Shown here: positions 5,522 through 15,801 of the stretch, piece after piece
Layout of the letters: every line of letters begins with the position of its first letter
Numbering within the stretch: the stretch's first letter is position 1
Source: Planctomycetota bacterium
GTDB lineage: Bacteria; Planctomycetota; JAJSAM01; JAJVHW01
Length of the DNA stretch: 64,000 bases
Direction of reading: 5' to 3'
Assembly (NCBI GenBank): GCA_965248445.1
Contig: CBDFJG010000004.1
Location: 448,001 to 512,000, forward strand
Notes under the pieces: model-generated
Seen by the model: only the letters and a program-made list of their open reading frames with translations
Told to the model about the DNA's origin: nothing
Database searches by the model: none
Position numbers and translations under genes: made by a program

Positions 5522-5857
5522 GCGCACACCCCCATGCGCGCGAGTCTCGAACTCGTCTGGCCGGCCGCAGCCTGCACGGCATCCTCTTCTCTGGTCTTGC
5601 TCTCGGTCCGGCGCCCCCGCGCCATGACTCGTATCGAGAATCGGCCAGTCGGAGCCTCGAAGTTGAGGGGAATCCCGTCTCAGGCTCAGCCTCCCACCAG
5701 GCTCGGCCTCGGCGGCCCGCCCGGCGGCCCCCTCGCCGCAGCCTGGCTCCATGCCCTACAGAGTGGGAACATGCCGCGGCTCCCGGCTGTCTGAGGGAGC
5801 GGAGCCCGCCGTCTGCGATCTCCCCTCCCCGAACCCCCTGCGAAGCAGAGGAGAACC

Positions 5858-7060
5858 ATGAACCTTCACATCGCGAGCACCGCCCTGGCCCTGATCCTCG
5901 GCGCCGTCCCGCTCACGAACGCGTTGGCCGACGAGCCCGTACCGCCCGCCGGTGACGACGCCGCCGCGGCGACGGACACCGAGTTGAAGCCTGCCCTGAA
6001 GCCCATCGAGTGGATCGAAGGCTGGGAAGCAGGACAGGCCGCAGCGGCCGAGAGCGGCAAGCTCATGCTGGTCTACGTCCACCGCAGGTCACCGCCGTGA
6101 CCCCCTTGCATCGCGCTCGAGAACAGTGTGTTCTCGAAAGATGAGAGCGGGGCGATCAGCGACCGTTACGTGGCCGTCCGCCTGACCGGCGGCAGAGACA
6201 TCACTTCCGCAGTTCGCGAGTTCATGACCAAGTACGGCATCGGTGGTTACCCCTCGATCATGGTGATGAACTCCGAGGGTCACGTGGTGAACAACCGCGT
6301 CGACCGCTCGACCGACGGCATCCTCGGCGCGCTCGAGAAGGGCGCTGAACTCGAGACCGAGTTCGCTGCGCTCAAGGGCAAGGAAGACGTCGAGAGCCGC
6401 ACGAAGCTTGCCGGCATGCTGGCGGACCGCAAGCTGTTCGACGAAGCGAGCGCCGCTTTCGACAAGCTGCTCGAACAGGCGCCGTCCGTCGGCGTCCACA
6501 CCGGCATCTTGAAGCTGCACCAGGCCCAGGGCAACTCGGCAGACGAGGAACTCCTCCTCAACGAGATGCTCGAGCTCTACCCGAAGGCCGATGACCGCAT
6601 CTCGTGGCGTGTGCGTCTGGCGACCAAGCCCGCACGTACGCTCAGGCGCTCCACGCCGCCGGAGGAGGGCAAGGCCCTCATGGGCAGCGCCGTCGCGAAC
6701 CTCCAGGAGATCCTGGACGACCTGACGGGTACCGAGGAAGCGCCCGCTGGCGAGAAGGCACCGGTCGAGCACGTGGCCGAGGTCCGCCAGAGCATGATCG
6801 GCCTGCTCACGCGGCTGCAGCGCCGCGACGAGGTCGAGGAGCACATCGATTGGCTGCTCGACGCGGGCAAGGCGACGAAGTTCGCGCCGAGCGCACTGCT
6901 CGCTCGCGCGAACCTCGCGTATAGAGACAAGGACTACGACGCCGCGATCGAAGCGCTCAACCAGGTCCTCGAGGACTACCCAGACAGCGACGAGGCGAAG
7001 AGCGCCCCGTCCTGGATCGAGAACGTCCAGAAGAAGAAGGCCGCCGACTCCGGCGACTGA
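5858..7060 (+). CDS. Exported thioredoxin-like + TPR protein, predicted selenoprotein (Sec at TGA 6098-6100, UPPC motif), 400 aa
   Basis: ORFs 5858-6100 and 6128-7060 are in frame; read-through gives KLMLVYVHRRSPP-U-PPC-IALENSVF, cis-Pro loop GYPSIMV; downstream hairpin; RBS GAGGAG before ATG. Confidence 0.85.
6109..6143 (+). promoter_or_regulatory. Putative bacterial SECIS element
   Basis: TCGAGAACA(6117-6125)/GTG loop/TGTTCTCGA(6129-6137) perfect 9-bp stem plus lower CATC/GATG stem; apical G 26 nt after UGA. Confidence 0.75.
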
Positions 7061-7081: not shown

Positions 7082-7110
7082 CGGGCCCCGGCGCACTCCG
7101 CCGGGGCCCG
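7082..7110 (+). terminator. GC-rich hairpin, probable intrinsic terminator
   Basis: CGGGCCCCGGCG-CACTC-CGCCGGGGCCCG 12-bp stem 21 nt after stop; weak U tract. Confidence 0.6.
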
Positions 7111-7186: not shown

Positions 7187-8635
7187 GTGCGCGAGGGTCC
7201 GGCGTCCGATCTCACGGGCGTGTCCGAGTTCTTCGATCACGTGGTTCGGTCGCTGGTCCACAGGCGCCCCGAGGGCCGATTTCAGTCGGCAATGGCCCTT
7301 GCCGACGCGCTGTTCAAGGGCGAGTCGTCAGACTGGTGGCAACGGAGGAACTGCCCAGCCGCTGCTGCCGCGGACGCTCGGGCAGCGCCTACGAGCACGC
7401 AGCCACGCACGTCCTTCACGAAGACGGGTCTTCTGATGTTTCACGCGGATGCCCTCCGCGGTCGCGATCGGATGATCGATGCGCTCAGAGTGCTCGATGA
7501 CGCGGCGCGGGCGCAGCCACGGGATCCCGCAATCCGAAACGCGATCGGGCTGTGGTTCCGGGACGCTGGGGACCCAAAGCGCGCCAGAGCCGAACTGCTC
7601 GCCGCCATAGAACTGGCACCGCCTGACCCTCATGGACGTGAGCTTGAGTCGATGGCGAGGTCCAACCTCGGACTCGTTTACATGGACACGGGCCAACTGC
7701 CAGAGGCCCGCGAGCAGTTGCGGCTCCGTCTGGAGTACCTGGATCGCCACCCGGATCCACGCGCGCGAGCCGCGGTTCTGAACAGTCTTGGAAGCGTGTA
7801 TTTTCGGGAACAGCGGTACGCGCAAGCGCGCGAACACTATCAGCTAGCGTGGAGGAGCGCGCGCGCCTGCGGGTATGAGCGTGTCGCGATCGTGAGCCTA
7901 TCGAACCTGGGTAACGTCGCCTATGCGCTGGGCAACTACAACGACGCAGAGCGCCTCTATCGGACGAGCCGAAAGCTCGCTTCCCGGGCCGATGATGTGG
8001 GAGCAGTCGCGTCTGCCCGAGCGAACGAGGCGGGCGTGCTCGTGGCACTTGGGCGCCTTGCGGATGCTCAGCGACTGTATGCGACTTGCCTCGAAGTCGC
8101 CCGCGGGCGAAGTGCCATACGGGACGTCGTACTCGCTCATCTGAACCTCGGAGCGGTGTTCACCTTGCTTGCCCAAGACGTCGCCGCCGAGGCGTCGCTG
8201 TTGGACGCAGTGGAGATGGCGCGTGATCGGGGTCTCGGGGACTTGGAGCCGTTGGCACGTCTCGGCCTTGGCGAATACTTCGCGAGCCGGGGGGACGACT
8301 CCAAAGCGATGGAGTGCTTCTGCCGGGCACTGCTGGCGCTGGGACCGGAGCGTCGTGCTCAATTGGCGCAGGCCCACCTCGGAATCGGACTCGTTGAGGC
8401 TCGCAACGACGACGCGCCTGATGCTCGGCGCGAGTTGTCGCTCGCTCGGGACCTGGCTTTGGAGGCGGGCGGCACGGGCGTTCGCGGTCTGTTCTCGGGC
8501 GCGCGGGCCTCGCGGCTGCTGGCCGAGCGCATCGCCGAAGGCGCAGGTGTCACCGCCCATCGAGCGCCGGTCCTGGGCGTTCTGAGGCGGCCGAACTCGA
8601 GCCCAGGGGGTGGGCGACGTTTGGGCCCACCCTGA
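7187..8635 (+). pseudogene. TPR-repeat protein beginning with a remnant of a Ser/Thr kinase C-terminus
   Basis: VSEFFDHVVRSLVHRRPEGRFQSAMALADAL resembles kinase subdomain XI; MalT-type TPRs follow (SNLGLVY, NSLGSVY, SNLGNVAY); codon usage visibly less GC3-biased. Confidence 0.55.
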
Positions 8636-8890: not shown

Positions 8891-9535
8891 ATGCCGGTGA
8901 GCAAGCCGGGCGGCCGGTGGGAGTGGACCCGTGGCGAGGACGAGATTGTCCAGGCGCTGCGGGTTGCGGGCGTGTCTGCGGACCGTACAGCGGATGCGAT
9001 TGGGTGCGAGCCGCGGTCACTGATTGCGCGGTACGGGGACGTGTTCGGTGCGCCGCGGACGGAGACGCACGAGCGGGCATTCACGGAGAACGAGGTGAAG
9101 ACGGCGGTCGAGATGAAGGCGCACGGGATCGCGGAGCGTCACATCGCGAAGGTGCTGGAGACGTCGATCACGACGTTGCGGAAGCACCTCGGGGACAAGC
9201 TGGCGGTGGCGGAGGCGAACTTGGTGCACGAGGTCGCGCGCGCGCTGGCCGTGAAGGCGAAGAAGGGCGACACGAAGGCGATGATGTTCTTCCTGGAGAA
9301 GCGCGGCGGTGCTGCGTGGCGGGACCGTACGCACGTGGTGCACGAGGGCGTCGGTGTGCTGGTGCCGCCCGGGATGCTGACGGCGGACGCGTGGATTGCG
9401 TCGCACAGCCCGACGGCGCTCGAGGGCGGCGGTGCACGGCCGATTCTCGACGTGGAGCCGGACGCTGTCCGCGACGGGGAGGATGCGCCAGAGGAGGTGG
9501 CGCGCCTCCCCCGCCGGGAAGTCGACGCTGCGTGA
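8891..9535 (+). CDS. terS: Terminase small subunit (HTH)
   Basis: HTH IAKVLETSITTLRKH, GDTKAMMFFLEKRGG..W motif, directly upstream of and overlapping TerL. Confidence 0.75.
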   Translation: MPVSKPGGRWEWTRGEDEIVQALRVAGVSADRTADAIGCEPRSLIARYGDVFGAPRTETHERAFTENEVKTAVEMKAHGIAERHIAKVLETSITTLRKHLGDKLAVAEANLVHEVARALAVKAKKGDTKAMMFFLEKRGGAAWRDRTHVVHEGVGVLVPPGMLTADAWIASHSPTALEGGGARPILDVEPDAVRDGEDAPEEVARLPRREVDAA

Positions 9536-12135
9536 GCACGGCGGCTCTTCCGGGCGTGGGTGTGGACGAGCAGCGCGAGCTCGAGGACGGTGTGCGTGCC
9601 GCGCGTGCTTCGGAGTTGTCGCGTGCGTCGAGGTCGGTGAACGGCGCGAAGGTGATCTGGGCGCCGTTGCCCGGTAGCCAGGAAGCGTTCCTGCAGTGCC
9701 CGCTGTTCGAGGTCCTGTACCACGGGAGCCGGGGCGGCGGGAAGACGGACTGCCTGCTGATGTCGTACGCGCAGCACGTCGGACGCGGGCATGGGCCGGC
9801 GTGGCGCGGGATCTTGTTCCGTCAGTCGCACCCGCAGCTGGCGGACGTGATCGCGAAGTCGCAGGAGTGGTTTCCGCGGATCTTCCCCGGTGCGCACTTC
9901 AACATGAGCCGCACGGAGTGGAAGTTCCCCGACGGCGAGATGCTGCTGTTCCGGCACATCGCGCAGCCGGCGGACTACTGGTGCGTGCCGGACGGCGACG
10001 TCCTGACCGAGCGCGGCTGGGCGCCGATCGAGGACGTGCGTGTCGGCGAGCGGGCGCTCACATGCGACCTCGAGACGATGCGCGTCGAGCTGCTTCCGGT
10101 CCGGGAACGGCCGGCCTTCGACTACGACGGTGACATCGTCGAGTACGAGGGCCGCGGACGGTTCATGTCGTTCACGCCGAACCATCGGCTCGTGACCGCC
10201 GATCGAGAGCTCGTCCCGTACTGCGAACTGCCGCGCGAGGCGTCGATCTGCCGTGGCGGGTGGTCCGTGCAGCGCGAGGGGATCGAGTCGTTCGATATCC
10301 CGGCCGTCGAGACGCGGATCCCGTGCGGACAGCCGACGTCGATGAGCGGCGACGACTACTGCGAGTTCATGGGCTGGTATCTCGCAGAGGGGTCGACCGT
10401 CAAGACGCCCGATCGCACCGGCAGGCTGTCGAACATCATCAGCATCGCGCAGAAGAAGACGGACCGCCGCGCGAAGATCGCCGCACTGCTGGATCGGGTT
10501 GGGATCGGCCACAGGGCGACGGACACACAGTTCGTCTGGTCTTCGAAGCGCTGGGCGACCTGGCTCCGGGAGTACGGTGGGTTCCAGCAGAAGTTCATCC
10601 CGCGCAACATCATCGAGTCCGCGAGCGCCGCGCAACTTCGGCAGTTCCTCGACGCGTTCATCGACGGAGACGGGACGCGCCAGGGCGATCGCCTATACGC
10701 GTTCACGTCGTCGCCGGGACTGCGCGACGGAATCTGCGAGGTCGGTGTCCTGCTCGGGTACGCGCCTCACGTGCTCGTGCGCCATCGTGACGAACGCCAG
10801 GTCTCGTACCAGATCTCCCTGAACCCACGATCGAGCCATCGCCTCTACACCGACAACCGCGAGCGGAACATCCGCGAGAACAGCGCGAAGACGCAGGTGA
10901 CCCGTCGTCACCACAAGGGTCGCGTGTACTGCCTGAGCTTCGCGCGGAACCACACGTTCTTCATCCGCCAACGCGGGTCGGTCTGGCTGTCGGGAAACTC
11001 GTATCACGGCCATGAGCTGCCGTGGATCGGGTTCGAGGAGCTGACGAACTGGAACACCGACGAGTGCTACACGCGGATGTTCTCTTGCAGCCGGTCGTCG
11101 CGGAGCGGCATGCCGCGGATGGTGCGGGCGACCACGAACCCGTACGGGGTGGGGACGAACTGGGTGCGGGACCGGTTCAAGCTCGCTGGCCAGTGGGACA
11201 AGGTCGTGGTGATCGAGAAGCCGCTCGGTCGCGGCGGGAAGCTGGAGCCGCCTCGAGCGGCGATCCACAGCCACCTGCGCGAGAACACGGTGCTGATGGC
11301 GGCGGATCCGGACTACGAGCAGAAGATCCGCGCGTCGGCGACCAACGAGGCGATGGCGGAAGCGTGGCTCGACGGATCGTGGGACCTGGTGGCCGGCGGG
11401 ATGTTCGGGGACGTGTGGAACTCGCGCGTCAACGACGTGCCGGACTTCGACGTTCCGGAGTCGTGGCGGATCGATCGCGCGTTCGACTGGGGGTCGAGTG
11501 CGCCGTTCAGCGTGGGCTGGTACGCGGTCAGCGACGGTAGCGATCTGACGCTGCGCGATGACCGCGTGGTGTCGACCGTGCGCGGGGACCTGTTCCGGAT
11601 TCGGGAGTGGTACGGGTGGAACGGGTCGCCGAACAAGGGACTGATGATGCTCGCGGTCGAGATCGCCAAGGGGATCGTGGAGCGCGAGATCGCGTGGGGC
11701 TGGCGGAAAGACCGTCGGTGTCGCGTGAAGGCGGGGCCCGCGGACTCCTCGATCTTCTCGGTCGAGAACGGGATGAGCATCGCGATGGACATGGCGAAGC
11801 CGGTGCACATCGACGGCACGGTGTTCATGGGCATCGAGTGGCTGCGGGCCGACAAGCGGCCTGGCTCACGGAAGATGGGCTGGGAGATGGTGCGGAAGAT
11901 GATGGCGGCCGCGCGGAAACCTGCGCACGGCGGCCCGCGTGAGACGCCGGCGCTGTTCGTGGTCGGGAAGAAGAACCCGCAGTTCCTGCGCACGATGCTC
12001 GTGCTGCCGCGCGATGAGCGGGATCTCGACGACGTCGACACGAAGGCGGAAGACCATGTCGGAGACGAAGTGCGGTATCGCGTGCGTGCCGTCGGGACCG
12101 AGGTGACGTCAGGCACCACGGTGGGGATGTACTGA
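9532..12135 (+). CDS. terL: Terminase large subunit with intein
   Basis: Walker A GSRGGGKT, Walker B WIGFEE, RATTNP coupling motif, nuclease RAFDWGSS and EDHVGDEVRY; GTG 9532 overlaps terS stop. Confidence 0.95.
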   Translation: MSTAALPGVGVDEQRELEDGVRAARASELSRASRSVNGAKVIWAPLPGSQEAFLQCPLFEVLYHGSRGGGKTDCLLMSYAQHVGRGHGPAWRGILFRQSHPQLADVIAKSQEWFPRIFPGAHFNMSRTEWKFPDGEMLLFRHIAQPADYWCVPDGDVLTERGWAPIEDVRVGERALTCDLETMRVELLPVRERPAFDYDGDIVEYEGRGRFMSFTPNHRLVTADRELVPYCELPREASICRGGWSVQREGIESFDIPAVETRIPCGQPTSMSGDDYCEFMGWYLAEGSTVKTPDRTGRLSNIISIAQKKTDRRAKIAALLDRVGIGHRATDTQFVWSSKRWATWLREYGGFQQKFIPRNIIESASAAQLRQFLDAFIDGDGTRQGDRLYAFTSSPGLRDGICEVGVLLGYAPHVLVRHRDERQVSYQISLNPRSSHRLYTDNRERNIRENSAKTQVTRRHHKGRVYCLSFARNHTFFIRQRGSVWLSGNSYHGHELPWIGFEELTNWNTDECYTRMFSCSRSSRSGMPRMVRATTNPYGVGTNWVRDRFKLAGQWDKVVVIEKPLGRGGKLEPPRAAIHSHLRENTVLMAADPDYEQKIRASATNEAMAEAWLDGSWDLVAGGMFGDVWNSRVNDVPDFDVPESWRIDRAFDWGSSAPFSVGWYAVSDGSDLTLRDDRVVSTVRGDLFRIREWYGWNGSPNKGLMMLAVEIAKGIVEREIAWGWRKDRRCRVKAGPADSSIFSVENGMSIAMDMAKPVHIDGTVFMGIEWLRADKRPGSRKMGWEMVRKMMAAARKPAHGGPRETPALFVVGKKNPQFLRTMLVLPRDERDLDDVDTKAEDHVGDEVRYRVRAVGTEVTSGTTVGMY
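9982..10998 (+). mobile_element. Intein with LAGLIDADG homing endonuclease (339 aa)
   Basis: Starts CVPDGDVLTERGW, block B TPNH, EFMGWYLAEG and FLDAFIDGDG motifs, block F VYCLSF, ends SGN followed by Ser+1. Confidence 0.93.
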
Positions 12136-12839
12136 TGCGAGATCCGCTGTTCGGTTCCTTCATGAGCGCCACCGACGCGGCTGAGAAGGCATATGAACTG
12201 ATCCGCGCGATCCCGCGCGACGGGCGGGGGAACCCGCTGACACTCGAGGGCACGATTCGGTCTGTGATCCTCAAACACCCAGGCATGTTCAAGTACCGAG
12301 ACGACGTGCTCGGCATCCTCTACTGCGTGCTCGGGACCGGGATCCGGTGGCTGGGCGGGCGCCTCGGTGACGTGAACCCCAACGGCTACACCAATCCCCC
12401 GCCCGAGGCGGGAGGGCAGGGGGTCTGGTCGCTGGACCACGGCTTCGACGACTCTCTCAAGAGCATGGGAGCCGCTGGCGAGGCCATGCGAGAGCGCCTC
12501 AAGCAGCGGCACGCGGGGGAACTCCAGGCCGCGATCGAGACGATCGAGAGCATCGACGAGCGGTGCCAGCAGCTCCGGCCGGACGGCAAGTCCTGGTATC
12601 CGATCAGCTGGTACGCGTGCAACCTCTGCGCCCCTGAGGGAGCGCAGGCAGACTTCCGCGACGGAGCGATCGAGACAGCAACGCTCATCGTGAACGCAAC
12701 ACCGGAGCCGGGCACTCAGCGGTGGCTCATTCACCAGCGTACGAAGCGCGTCGCCGGGGAGATCCTCAGCGTGCTGCTGGCAAGGCCGACTGGCGATTCG
12801 CCACCGATCGCTGACGCGACTGCGGTAACGGTCCCGTGA
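12135..12839 (+). CDS. Phage hypothetical protein
   Basis: Start overlaps terL stop; coding-like composition. Confidence 0.6.
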   Translation: MRDPLFGSFMSATDAAEKAYELIRAIPRDGRGNPLTLEGTIRSVILKHPGMFKYRDDVLGILYCVLGTGIRWLGGRLGDVNPNGYTNPPPEAGGQGVWSLDHGFDDSLKSMGAAGEAMRERLKQRHAGELQAAIETIESIDERCQQLRPDGKSWYPISWYACNLCAPEGAQADFRDGAIETATLIVNATPEPGTQRWLIHQRTKRVAGEILSVLLARPTGDSPPIADATAVTVP

Positions 12840-13321
12840 TGGAGGCGCTTGCCCTCCCGGAGACGTCCGACAGCGTGAGGGCGCTCCACGTGATCGAGTG
12901 TCCGGACCCCGCGTGTGATTACGAGGCAGAGGTCCGTGGCCGGTTCATCCGCGCTGACGAAGCGCTGACGGCGCACCTTGTCGGCGAACACGGCGTGCGT
13001 CGACTGGCGGAGCTCGTGATCTCGCTCAGCACCGCGAAGACCATCGCGACCGGCGCTGCACTGCGCGCCACCGGAGCACCGGCGCGGCGTGTCGGGTGGA
13101 TGCGGGGCGATTCTCTGCCACCGATCGGGACAGTCGCGCGAGCGATCCTCGAGCACATGAAGACGATGCCGTTGCGGGAGTGGCGGAACCGTGAGCTGAT
13201 CTCGTTCGCGCCGGCGCATCTGAAGTCGAAGCCGGACACTCGGATCGGGGCAGAACTCACCAACCTCAAGAAGGCGCGGCTGATCGTGAAGGTCGGCCAC
13301 GGCCTGTGGAGAGTGCGATGA
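12836..13321 (+). CDS. Putative C2H2 zinc-finger + winged-helix DNA-binding protein
   Basis: CPDPAC...HLVGEH and C-terminal ELTNLKKARLIVKVGHGLW wHTH-like wing. Confidence 0.55.
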   Translation: MMEALALPETSDSVRALHVIECPDPACDYEAEVRGRFIRADEALTAHLVGEHGVRRLAELVISLSTAKTIATGAALRATGAPARRVGWMRGDSLPPIGTVARAILEHMKTMPLREWRNRELISFAPAHLKSKPDTRIGAELTNLKKARLIVKVGHGLWRVR

Positions 13322-13385
13322 GCAGCCGAGTACTTGCGTCAGAAGCGCGCGGGCGACGGCGACAACGACGAAAGGGAGACTCAGA

Positions 13386-13970
13386 GTGAGCATCGACACG
13401 CACCGCGTGGTCTGGGGAGCGGTCAATCCTGAGACAGCGATCGACATCAAGGCGACGGAGCTCGCGGCGAAACACGCTGACGAGCAACGCGCGCTTGGTC
13501 GGGAGATCCTGCACATCGATCACAGCGCAACGCGCTTGTCGACGGTCGTCGTGCAGGAGGTTCACGAGACGCGTGAGTCCGCGGAGGCGCTGGCGAACGC
13601 GGCGGAAGGCTGGGAGGCACTGAACAAGCACACGGGCGCGCCGGTACGCGGCATTCAGTACTTCGCGCCCAGCGTGGCGGTGGATCTCGCGCTGCTGTTC
13701 CGAGACGAGACGGAGACCGAGATCGACGCGCGCGCGGAGCTGCGCGGGATCGACCTGGCGCTTGGCGCCGCACAGCAGGCCGCGGACCGGGACTTCGGTC
13801 CTAGCCACATCCTGTGCGTGTGCACCGGTGATGATGAGGTGGACTCGAACTGCCCGGTGCACGGGAGCGTTCGCGCGATCGAGGCCCTCCGGGGGCCGAA
13901 GGCAGAGCGCATCCGGAAGAAGTACGCGGACGCGTCGAAGTCGATGGCGGGCGAGGCGGCGGATGGCTGA
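13386..13970 (+). CDS. Phage hypothetical protein
   Basis: RBS GGGAGA; CVC...CPVHG motif. Confidence 0.55.
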   Translation: MSIDTHRVVWGAVNPETAIDIKATELAAKHADEQRALGREILHIDHSATRLSTVVVQEVHETRESAEALANAAEGWEALNKHTGAPVRGIQYFAPSVAVDLALLFRDETETEIDARAELRGIDLALGAAQQAADRDFGPSHILCVCTGDDEVDSNCPVHGSVRAIEALRGPKAERIRKKYADASKSMAGEAADG

Positions 13971-14313
13971 CGACGCTCCCGATCGCCACCGCCAAGGCAT
14001 CGCGGACGGCATCGCGCTCAGCGCGGCCGTGCTACGCGAGCTCCCCCTCCTCTGGGCGGAGGCGTTCCCGACCGGCGTCGCGCGCGAAGGTGACTCGCCG
14101 GACGACATGCGCGCGTTCGTCGCCATGTTGGGCCCGTACGCGAAGTGGGTCGGAACGCACCTGTCGACCGTCGCGAACGTGTATCCGGCGCCCACGCACA
14201 GCCCCGAGAAGCTCGACGCGTTCATGGCCCGGAACAGGGCTTCAGCGGCGCTCGACATGGCGATGGGCGCGGCTTCGGTCGGCGCTCGCCCCCTGCCCGA
14301 CACCGACTACTGA
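13963..14313 (+). CDS. Phage hypothetical protein
   Basis: ATG 13963 overlaps upstream stop; MADDAPDRH... Confidence 0.5.
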   Translation: MADDAPDRHRQGIADGIALSAAVLRELPLLWAEAFPTGVAREGDSPDDMRAFVAMLGPYAKWVGTHLSTVANVYPAPTHSPEKLDAFMARNRASAALDMAMGAASVGARPLPDTDY

Positions 14314-14334
14314 CCACGAAGCGAGGACCCGTCC

Positions 14335-15801
14335 ATGTCCGTCAGCAGCCCCCACCCGCTCTACTCCGAGTTCCTGCCGGACTGGGAGCAGATGGACGAC
14401 ACGTTCCGCGGTCAGCGCGCCGTCAAGGACAAGGGCGTCCTCTACCTGCCGGCGACGAGCGGGATGATCGACGACGGCATGGGGGTGGAGGACAAGGGCT
14501 ACAAGCAGTACGTCTCGTACCGGCTTCGTGCTCGGTTCCCGAATCTCGTCGGTGAGGCAGTGCGTGCAGCGCTGGGCGTCATGCACCGCGAGCCGCCGAG
14601 GTTCGAGCTGCCGTCCCAGATGGAGTACCTGCGCGAGAGCGCGACGCCGACCGGCGAGTCGCTGTGGATGTTGCTGCAGCGCATCAACGAGCAGCAGCTG
14701 GCGTTCGGGCGTCTCGGGATCCTGGGCGACGTGTTCGACAGCGGCGCGCGCAGGAACAAGCTCTACGTCGCCATCTACTTCGCCAAGGACATCATCAACT
14801 GGGACCAGGGTCGTCGATCCGGCACCGGCGACAAGACCACGAACCTCGTCGTCCTGAACGAGACCGGGAACGTGCGAGACGGCGGCTTCACGTGGAAGGT
14901 CGTCACCAAGTACCGCGTGCTGGTGCTGGGCGACCTGGCGGCGAACGAGGTCGCCGGCGAGGGCGACTACGGCGTAGCGATGGTGGACGAGGACCAGGAA
15001 CTGGGCGCGGTGACGTTCACGCCCCCCGGGGTGTCCGGGAAGGCGGCAACCGAGATCCCGTTCGAGTTCATCAACGCGTCCGACCTCGTCGCGGAGCCGC
15101 AGTGCCCGCCGCTGCTTGGACTCTCGGACCTCTCGCTCGTGGTCTACCGCGGCGACGCCGACCACCGACAGTCGCTGTTCATGCAGGGCCAGGACACGCT
15201 CGTGGTCAGCGGGGGATCGTCGGACGACGAGGAGATTCGCGTAGGAGCCGGTGCCGTCCTCCGCGTGTCCGCTGAGGGCGACGCGAAGTACATCGGGGTC
15301 GAGTCGTCCGGGCTGGAAGAGCAGCGCAGGGCGATTGAGAACGATCGCAAGGAGGGCGCGGCGCTGTCAGGCGAGCTGCTCGACACGACGTCGCGCGAGA
15401 AGGAGTCGGGCGACGCGCTGCGCGTGCGGGTGTCTTCGCGCACCGCGAACCTCAACCAGGTGGCCACCACCGGTGCAGCGGGCCTGCAGTCGCTGCTGCA
15501 GCGGCTCGCGCGATGGATCGGCGCTGACCCCGCGAAGGTCGTGGTCACCCCGAACCTGGACTTCGTCGACGACCGCATGCCGGGTCGCGACCTGATCGAC
15601 CTTGTGACCGCCAAGGGGCTCGGCGCGCCGATCTCCTACGAGTCGATCCACGGTCAGATGAAGGCGCGCGAGCTGACCCAGTTGGACTTCGCTGAGGAGA
15701 TCAAGAAGATCGAGGCAGAGGGAGACCTCGAGTTGGCCGGCATCGCCGGCAGCACGAACCCGAACGGTCCGGCGTCAGGCGACGGCGGAGGTAGCGAGTG
15801 A
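14335..15801 (+). CDS. Portal protein (DUF4055 type)
   Basis: HPLY...W, VKDKGVLYLP, YRLRARFPN, PPLLGL, ESGDALRVR; position between terminase and head genes. Confidence 0.9.
   Translation: MSVSSPHPLYSEFLPDWEQMDDTFRGQRAVKDKGVLYLPATSGMIDDGMGVEDKGYKQYVSYRLRARFPNLVGEAVRAALGVMHREPPRFELPSQMEYLRESATPTGESLWMLLQRINEQQLAFGRLGILGDVFDSGARRNKLYVAIYFAKDIINWDQGRRSGTGDKTTNLVVLNETGNVRDGGFTWKVVTKYRVLVLGDLAANEVAGEGDYGVAMVDEDQELGAVTFTPPGVSGKAATEIPFEFINASDLVAEPQCPPLLGLSDLSLVVYRGDADHRQSLFMQGQDTLVVSGGSSDDEEIRVGAGAVLRVSAEGDAKYIGVESSGLEEQRRAIENDRKEGAALSGELLDTTSREKESGDALRVRVSSRTANLNQVATTGAAGLQSLLQRLARWIGADPAKVVVTPNLDFVDDRMPGRDLIDLVTAKGLGAPISYESIHGQMKARELTQLDFAEEIKKIEAEGDLELAGIAGSTNPNGPASGDGGGSE

Follow-up and report, generated by a model that had tools for sequence, protein, structure and literature searches.

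Within a 64,000-nt stretch of DNA from a Planctomycetota bacterium (the window), one forward-strand gene is predicted to encode an exported selenoprotein of 400 amino acids (aa) that joins a DsbH-type thioredoxin-fold domain to tetratricopeptide repeats (TPRs). From comparison of sequences, we place the probability that its internal UGA codon is read as selenocysteine (Sec, U) at about 97%.

When TGA was translated as Sec, positions 5858–7060 (+) formed a single frame of 400 residues in which the TGA at 6098–6100, encoding residue 81 in the sequence HRRSPP-U-PP-C, was the sole internal stop. Under translation table 11, the same interval is read as two open reading frames (ORFs) of 80 and 310 aa. 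Translation therefore bears out three proposals of a preliminary description of this DNA, namely that one 400-aa frame spans both ORFs, that the TGA occupies the first position of a thioredoxin motif (PP-U-PP-C), and that gene callers split the gene; the last also holds for database representatives of the family. A Shine-Dalgarno-like GAGGAG (5848–5853, +) lies 4 nt 5′ of the ATG, and most homologues also have a purine-rich motif of this kind ahead of their start codon. The TGA at 7058–7060 was taken as the true stop because close homologues terminate at about this point with TAA or TAG and the hairpin downstream of it lacks a loop-initial G. Beyond the stop is a GC-rich 12-bp hairpin (7082–7110, +) that has no U-tract and gave no intrinsic terminator call; a similar hairpin follows the orthologous gene at locus L010. 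Based on homologue columns and the structural model, Sec81 (6098–6100, +) is the putative attacking residue of U-P-P-C, and Cys84 (6107–6109, +), the only Cys of the protein and invariant in 16 of 16 Sec-form domains, is the putative resolving residue.

The family comprises two clades with the U-P-P-C domain in common (hhalign 99.8%; SH-aLRT 99 and 100). Clade A, which includes this gene, carries the TPR tail; its profile matched 16 of 401 sampled genomes of the phylum, mostly from two families, and two marginal cases among these 16 are a clade-B gene and an outgroup sequence. Clade B has another, shorter helical tail and was matched in 96 of the 401 genomes, with an in-frame TGA inside 132 of 150 matches, counted per match and not per position. 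Together, the two clades occur in about a quarter of the sampled genomes. GTDB was searched with a degenerate DNA pattern that fixes the TGA and part of the hairpin and is therefore informative on range and taxonomy but not on the Sec:Cys ratio. This search returned at least 120 stretches, at least 79 loci, and at least 80 matches, and the matches listed consist of 76 family members and 4 chance matches. Nearly all of the 75 true loci listed are uncultured Planctomycetota (68 by title), along with 6 unlabelled loci and 1 titled Proteobacteria. Sec, Cys, and other residues are interleaved in the tree, a quick version in which gains and losses are unordered, and the true motif of one sequence (P0016) is CEPS. 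Natural Sec, Cys, and degenerate variants, along with a syntenic loss described below, allow a direct test, in one scaffold, of the long-standing question of what is gained by Sec over Cys. Several individual copies were also recorded. A clade-A-like copy with U-P-T-U and a SECIS-like hairpin (L298; G177:C7:720820-721662, −) is a variant with two Sec residues or, alternatively, a copy in decay. Clade-B paralogues with and without TGA occur in tandem arrays of two to four (G334:C262, G235:C29, G274:C149, and G199:C40). The genome under study (G000) itself encodes a Sec-less member of clade B whose motif is L-P-R-C instead of U-P-P-C (G000:C4:1987021-1987953, +) and, adjoining selA, a Cys-free thioredoxin-TPR protein (G000:C1:~525934, +).

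The Sec machinery looked for in this genome was found in full: selA (502 bits), selB (336 bits), selD (386 bits), and a tRNA-Sec with anticodon TCA (68 bits) all exceeded their cutoffs, and the selD gene itself contains a TGA. In addition, all 17 genomes of the order had selA above its cutoff. Column 81 of the alignment was compared across 26 loci of this genome and related ones. It is TGA in 16 loci (15 genomes, this one included); the remaining ten comprise six with another residue, one different UxxU paralogue, and three left unmapped by tblastn (L019, L023, and L029). A metagenome scan in which the codon was left free yielded 62 clade-B members with TGA and two with Cys, membership being judged by eye from the translation. 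For full-length clade-A representatives, column 81 is Cys in 13 of 19 and neither Cys nor Sec in the other six, and the motifs of full-length database homologues are CPPC, CPAC, CGYC, and similar sequences. The expectation that homologues would have TGA or Cys at this column is thus met by most, and fails for a minority with a non-Cys residue. Database representatives include 40 that begin just 3′ of the UGA and five that end just 5′ of it, which is the signature of a selenoprotein split at UGA. This work adds a large, systematically mis-annotated selenoprotein family, whose database fragments are missing the active site in some cases and the signal peptide in others.

A perfect 9-bp stem with a G-containing loop had been reported 17–37 nt past the UGA, and it was located there as described (6117–6137, +), with arms at 6117–6125 and 6129–6137 and the loop GUG. 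Folding, covariation, and the bacterial SECIS consensus identify it as a candidate SECIS hairpin with an A-GUG-U apical loop; the (A)GUG(U) loop lies 24–25 nt 3′ of the UGA, the folding energy is −15 kcal/mol, and the hairpin fits the consensus as given in the Fig. 2 legend of PMC13188914. A 63-nt region folds with −26.8 kcal/mol (z −3.44; 0 of 200 shuffles equally stable), and an 83-nt region reaches a z of only −1.77. Against synonymous-codon shuffles the window hairpin is not significant (p = 0.087), and our own crude SECIS filter was passed by 622 of 12,646 (~5%) six-frame UxxC/CxxU-type TGA contexts of the genome. A hairpin alone is weak evidence in a genome of 69% GC, and it is the family-level evidence that decides the Sec reading. 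Across 16 Sec genes, 92.4% of the cells of the stem are paired and four of nine pairs have changed on both sides, the window stem having C-G for the usual G-C at two synonymous positions; the covariation score was reached by 0 of 500 shuffles, and slid controls scored lower. Folding was better than the synonymous-shuffle mean in 65 of 66 Sec genes (56/57 clade-B and 9/9 clade-A) and significantly so (p ≤ 0.05) in 36 (32 clade-B and four clade-A), although such shuffle and Fisher statistics overstate the case because kin are not independent. This set leaves out five of the 62 clade-B genes, which had <300 nt downstream, and three of its nine clade-A genes came from the hairpin-biased pattern. 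Among eight homologues without UGA, none reached p ≤ 0.05 and seven folded slightly better than their shuffles. A Mann-Whitney test of TGA versus TGC/TGT hairpins was discarded, as 14 of 16 Cys-codon matches were chance matches.

A cleavable signal peptide is predicted at residues 1–24 (5858–5929, +; ALA/D, an AxA site) by our own hydrophobicity and cleavage rule. Its h-region has a hydropathy of 2.48, its n-region has no Lys or Arg, and model pLDDT is <50 across residues 4–26. Among the matches listed, 66 of 76 family members passed the same rule, and the failures were mostly wrong start picks. Export is very probable on this basis. The AlphaFold model of the 400-aa protein has a mean pLDDT of 91. 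A DsbH/Thioredoxin_7-type domain occupies residues ~49–165 (6002–6352, +; pLDDT ~98), with Thioredoxin_7 (PF13899) matching residues 52–138 at 34 bits against a cutoff of 27. Sec81 follows strand 70–76 at the N-terminus of helix 82–92, the position of the attacking Cys of thioredoxin. Pro132 of G-Y-P (6251–6253, +), at the thioredoxin cis-proline position and unchanged across all 49 aligned clade-A sequences, precedes strand 133–137 in the model, and its peptide bond is probably in cis geometry. The score over the gathering cutoff, the (U/C)xxC at a helix N-terminus, and the cis-Pro loop place the domain in the thioredoxin superfamily, with Thioredoxin_7. Its nearest structures are of the DsbH and DsbD-gamma types; in VIA-align, it matched DsbH (2ju5) with a Z of 13.4 and an rmsd of 4.4 over 132 aligned residues, and DsbH is the best thioredoxin-domain structural match in both clades (Z 13.4 for A and 11.7 for B). 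Residues ~178–398 (6389–7051, +) form a TPR-like helical domain of ten helices in the model, with TPR_14, TPR_16, TPR_6, and TPR_2 each above cutoff at residues 327–380. This domain aligns with YbgF (2xev; Z 12.8, rmsd 2.5, 121 aligned), and its profile matches are CpoB/YbgF and BamD. The previously suggested architecture of an exported thioredoxin-TPR protein is accordingly supported by Pfam for the domains, and by our own rule, without a basic n-region, for the signal peptide. Within the 49 clade-A sequences, two Cys residues in adjacent C-terminal helices are both present in 12, singly in nine, and absent from 28, and they co-occur as a periplasmic structural disulfide would.

No NCBIfam 20.0 model reached its cutoff for this protein or for ten Sec homologues. 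The prokaryotic selenoprotein inventory of 2026 (119 families), in the portion available, lists Trx7/PDZ and several UxxC thioredoxin-like families and names no TPR fusion, and the words "TPR" and "tetratricopeptide" have 0 occurrences in the accessible text of the 2026 review. In literature drawn mostly from outside subscription journals, neither a bacterial thioredoxin-TPR selenoprotein nor a three-domain Sec-DsbD was found. The description of this protein as an undescribed family member therefore holds against NCBIfam 20.0 and the accessible inventory, and judged by these two sources it belongs to an uncatalogued family within the known UxxC thioredoxin-fold class. The "Thiol:disulfide interchange protein" selenoprotein (PF13098, WP_011366075.1) is similar in its UGA-encoded Sec at the first CxxC position, its in-ORF SECIS, and its thioredoxin fold; in contrast, the present protein has a Thioredoxin_7/DsbH-type domain plus a TPR region of ~220 residues, and it scores 20 bits against the PF13098 cutoff of 27. 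The Trx7/PDZ (seleno)protein family NF041199 likewise has a Thioredoxin_7-type domain with Sec, and two true members with hydrophobic N-termini are encoded in this genome. The present protein scores 22.2 bits against the NF041199 cutoff of 300, has TPRs instead of a PDZ domain, and has U-P-P-C where that family has R-U-x-P-U/C. Chlamydia DsbH (PDB 2ju5; NF043050), the periplasmic protein that best matches the redox domain in structure, is a lone Cys domain, unlike this fused Sec protein; NF043050 gave no match for the query, and homologues scored 24–39 bits against the NF043050 cutoff of 190. Thioredoxin-TPR clusters with Cys in the ESM Atlas (Acidobacteriota, Armatimonadota, and Planctomycetota) have the same architecture and automatic names only; they were likened to the natural Cys homologue P0036 by feature score (0.94–0.96) and not by alignment.

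CnoX/YbbN (PDB 3qou) also combines an N-terminal thioredoxin domain with C-terminal TPRs, and both it and the present family include members with active and degenerate motifs. PF14561 (TPR_20), which we take to be the CnoX-type TPR, gave no match at this locus and did match the E. coli and Caulobacter CnoX controls. According to the accessible parts of published accounts, the CnoX motif is SxxC in E. coli and WCGPC in Caulobacter, and CnoX acts in the cytoplasm with GroEL/DnaK and TrxR. Unlike CnoX, this family combines Sec and a predicted signal peptide with a redox domain of the DsbH type and TPRs of the CpoB/BamD type. The protein is CnoX-like in domain order and is not a CnoX member.

DsbD and VKOR are present in the genome, and DsbB was not found there. 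The DsbD gene (L326:823-2718 = G000:C1:397665-399560, −; homologues L327–L343) encodes three domains, an alpha domain with CxxxxC, a transmembrane beta domain, and a gamma domain, and the first position of the gamma-domain CxxC is an in-frame TGA (FDFTGKG-U-INC). Of 17 genomes in the order, 13 share this TGA and the four that belong to family f3 have Cys; a supporting hairpin is significant in only five of the 13. The Sec-type DsbD falls below the cutoffs for NF001419 and TsoB, and the accessible part of the 2026 inventory contains no three-domain Sec-DsbD. Of the 14 Thioredoxin_7 matches in the genome, nine contain TGA. Among 20 other read-through candidates, 11 match thioredoxin-clan Pfams and have hydrophobic N-termini, and only one of the 20 reached a selenoprotein-family cutoff. 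In all, the candidate selenoproteome of G000 (L306–L325, L009) comprises ~30 genes that show coding signal and an in-frame TGA, and most of them have a signal peptide. These include TlpA/AhpC-like, Trx7+HEAT, Trx7 lipoprotein, two Trx7/PDZ (NF041199), and DUF3179 proteins, as well as candidates that, from their motifs, are presumably AhpD-, SelW-, and deiodinase-like. UGA candidates without a selenoprotein family match (L308:151-2394, +; L313:151-1188, +; L321:151-2589, +; L318; and L322) include a DUF1223+transglutaminase-like protein with G-U-S-S-C, one whose H-U-U-P motif comes from two consecutive UGA codons, an FG-GAP repeat protein bearing G-U-S-C, and ones in which U directly follows the predicted signal peptide.

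We propose the following mechanism. There is strong support, from sequence, for a first step in which SelB and tRNA-Sec would insert selenocysteine at the UGA, guided by the in-frame SECIS. The 400-aa protein would then be exported and its signal peptide cleaved. By established thioredoxin chemistry, periplasmic Sec81 would attack disulfides or oxidized cysteines of client proteins, and Cys84 would resolve the intermediate, leaving a selenenylsulfide. DsbD, apparently with Sec in its own gamma domain, may re-reduce the protein, while the CpoB/BamD-like TPR domain may dock or hold the client. The protein is thus probably a reducing or isomerizing periplasmic oxidoreductase of the DsbH type, with a client-binding TPR and CnoX-like domain order, recycled by DsbD. 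The reductase/isomerase reading is based on the DsbH/DsbD-gamma-like fold, the presence of DsbD, and the many Thioredoxin_7 genes with TGA; motif and fold do not fix the redox direction. In the portions available, PMC5193440 presents DsbH as a reducing oxidoreductase of the periplasm that resembles DsbD-gamma, and PMC3322552 describes DsbD as passing electrons from the cytoplasm to periplasmic oxidoreductases. A role in envelope protein folding, as originally suggested, seems plausible. At a broader level, the Sec that DsbD apparently carries, together with the large number of exported Sec thioredoxins in this genome, suggests heavy use of selenium in periplasmic redox homeostasis, and the periplasm is an oxidizing compartment in which selenols are no obvious choice. 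Tentatively, and with somewhat less than even odds, the reducing pathway of the envelope may depend largely on selenium in several uncultured Planctomycetota lineages, with Sec-DsbD feeding at least 12 exported Sec thioredoxin-fold proteins, this one acting as a client-binding periplasmic seleno-chaperedoxin.

It is very improbable that the UGA is a real stop, whether from a pseudogene, two genes, or an assembly error, or that it reflects a genome-wide code change to another residue. Gene callers do split the gene, and G159 (92% complete, 340 contigs) yielded no selA although its homologue has TGA. Against this, TGA recurs at the exact catalytic column across many families, other homologues have Cys there, and the SECIS covaries. 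TGA is also the commonest stop codon of this genome, ending 589 of 1,013 long training ORFs, which argues against global recoding. The possibility that reads would show TGC or TGT was likewise not borne out, as contigs assembled from four runs (one sample, possibly the source of this DNA) had no other letter at the TGA.

If the UGA is Sec, two other functions can be considered. The main rival, since some members have lost the catalytic residue, is a periplasmic TPR holdase or scaffold analogous to CnoX, in which U-P-P-C would serve only to protect client thiols or to sense oxidation. Its domain order is that of YbbN/CnoX, with 3qou and 3qdn near the top of the Foldseek list; active and degenerate motifs are mixed in the family as in CnoX, including a syntenic NEAC orthologue; and Sec-less relatives exist in the same genome. 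We nevertheless consider it unlikely, because the Foldseek CnoX matches (rmsd ~20, TM ~0.2) have only domain order in common, the Pfam families listed for 49 members (E ≤ 0.001) do not include TPR_20, and the costly UGA and SECIS are kept by most members. Less likely still is a periplasmic disulfide oxidase standing in for DsbA and re-oxidized by VKOR. In its favor, the genome encodes VKOR and no DsbB was found, but the model lacks a DsbA-type helical insertion, Tyr/Phe precedes the cis-Pro in place of the Val/Thr typical of DsbA, and the nearest structures are the DsbH and DsbD-gamma types noted above. The VKOR frame (G000:C1:~280300-281314, −) also appears to carry its own fused C-terminal CxxC thioredoxin-like domain.

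The selenoprotein gene appears to be monocistronic. A divergent receiver-domain gene (PF00072; 4538–5527, −) lies upstream and is syntenic in close relatives as context rather than as part of the gene, with receiver-type ORFs upstream in L299, L302, and L303. Across 95 neighborhoods, no conserved redox-partner or client gene and no conserved redox operon were found. The syntenic orthologue in G001 has N-E-A-C at the motif, in what appears to be a clean loss of Sec; together with the six clade-A representatives that have neither Cys nor Sec, this indicates that some lineages can do without the redox site. In three relatives, a tRNA-Pro(CGG) lies just downstream of the same locus, where the window instead has a prophage-like region. 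Directly downstream in the window is a 482-aa ORF with MalT-like TPR_12 (7187–8635, +), absent from the relatives' loci seen. The prophage-like genes (8891–15801, +) include an ORF at 9637–12135, presumably a terminase large subunit, whose internal LAGLIDADG domain is probably part of an intein, together with a portal-like gene with DUF4055 (14335–15801). Six 48–49-nt copies of the tRNA-Pro(CGG) 3′ end, resembling att-site scars of integrative elements, are found in G000 at C2:855259-855307, C3:295347-295395, and, on C4, 90156-90204, 288090-288138, 1286117-1286164, and 1978704-1978752.
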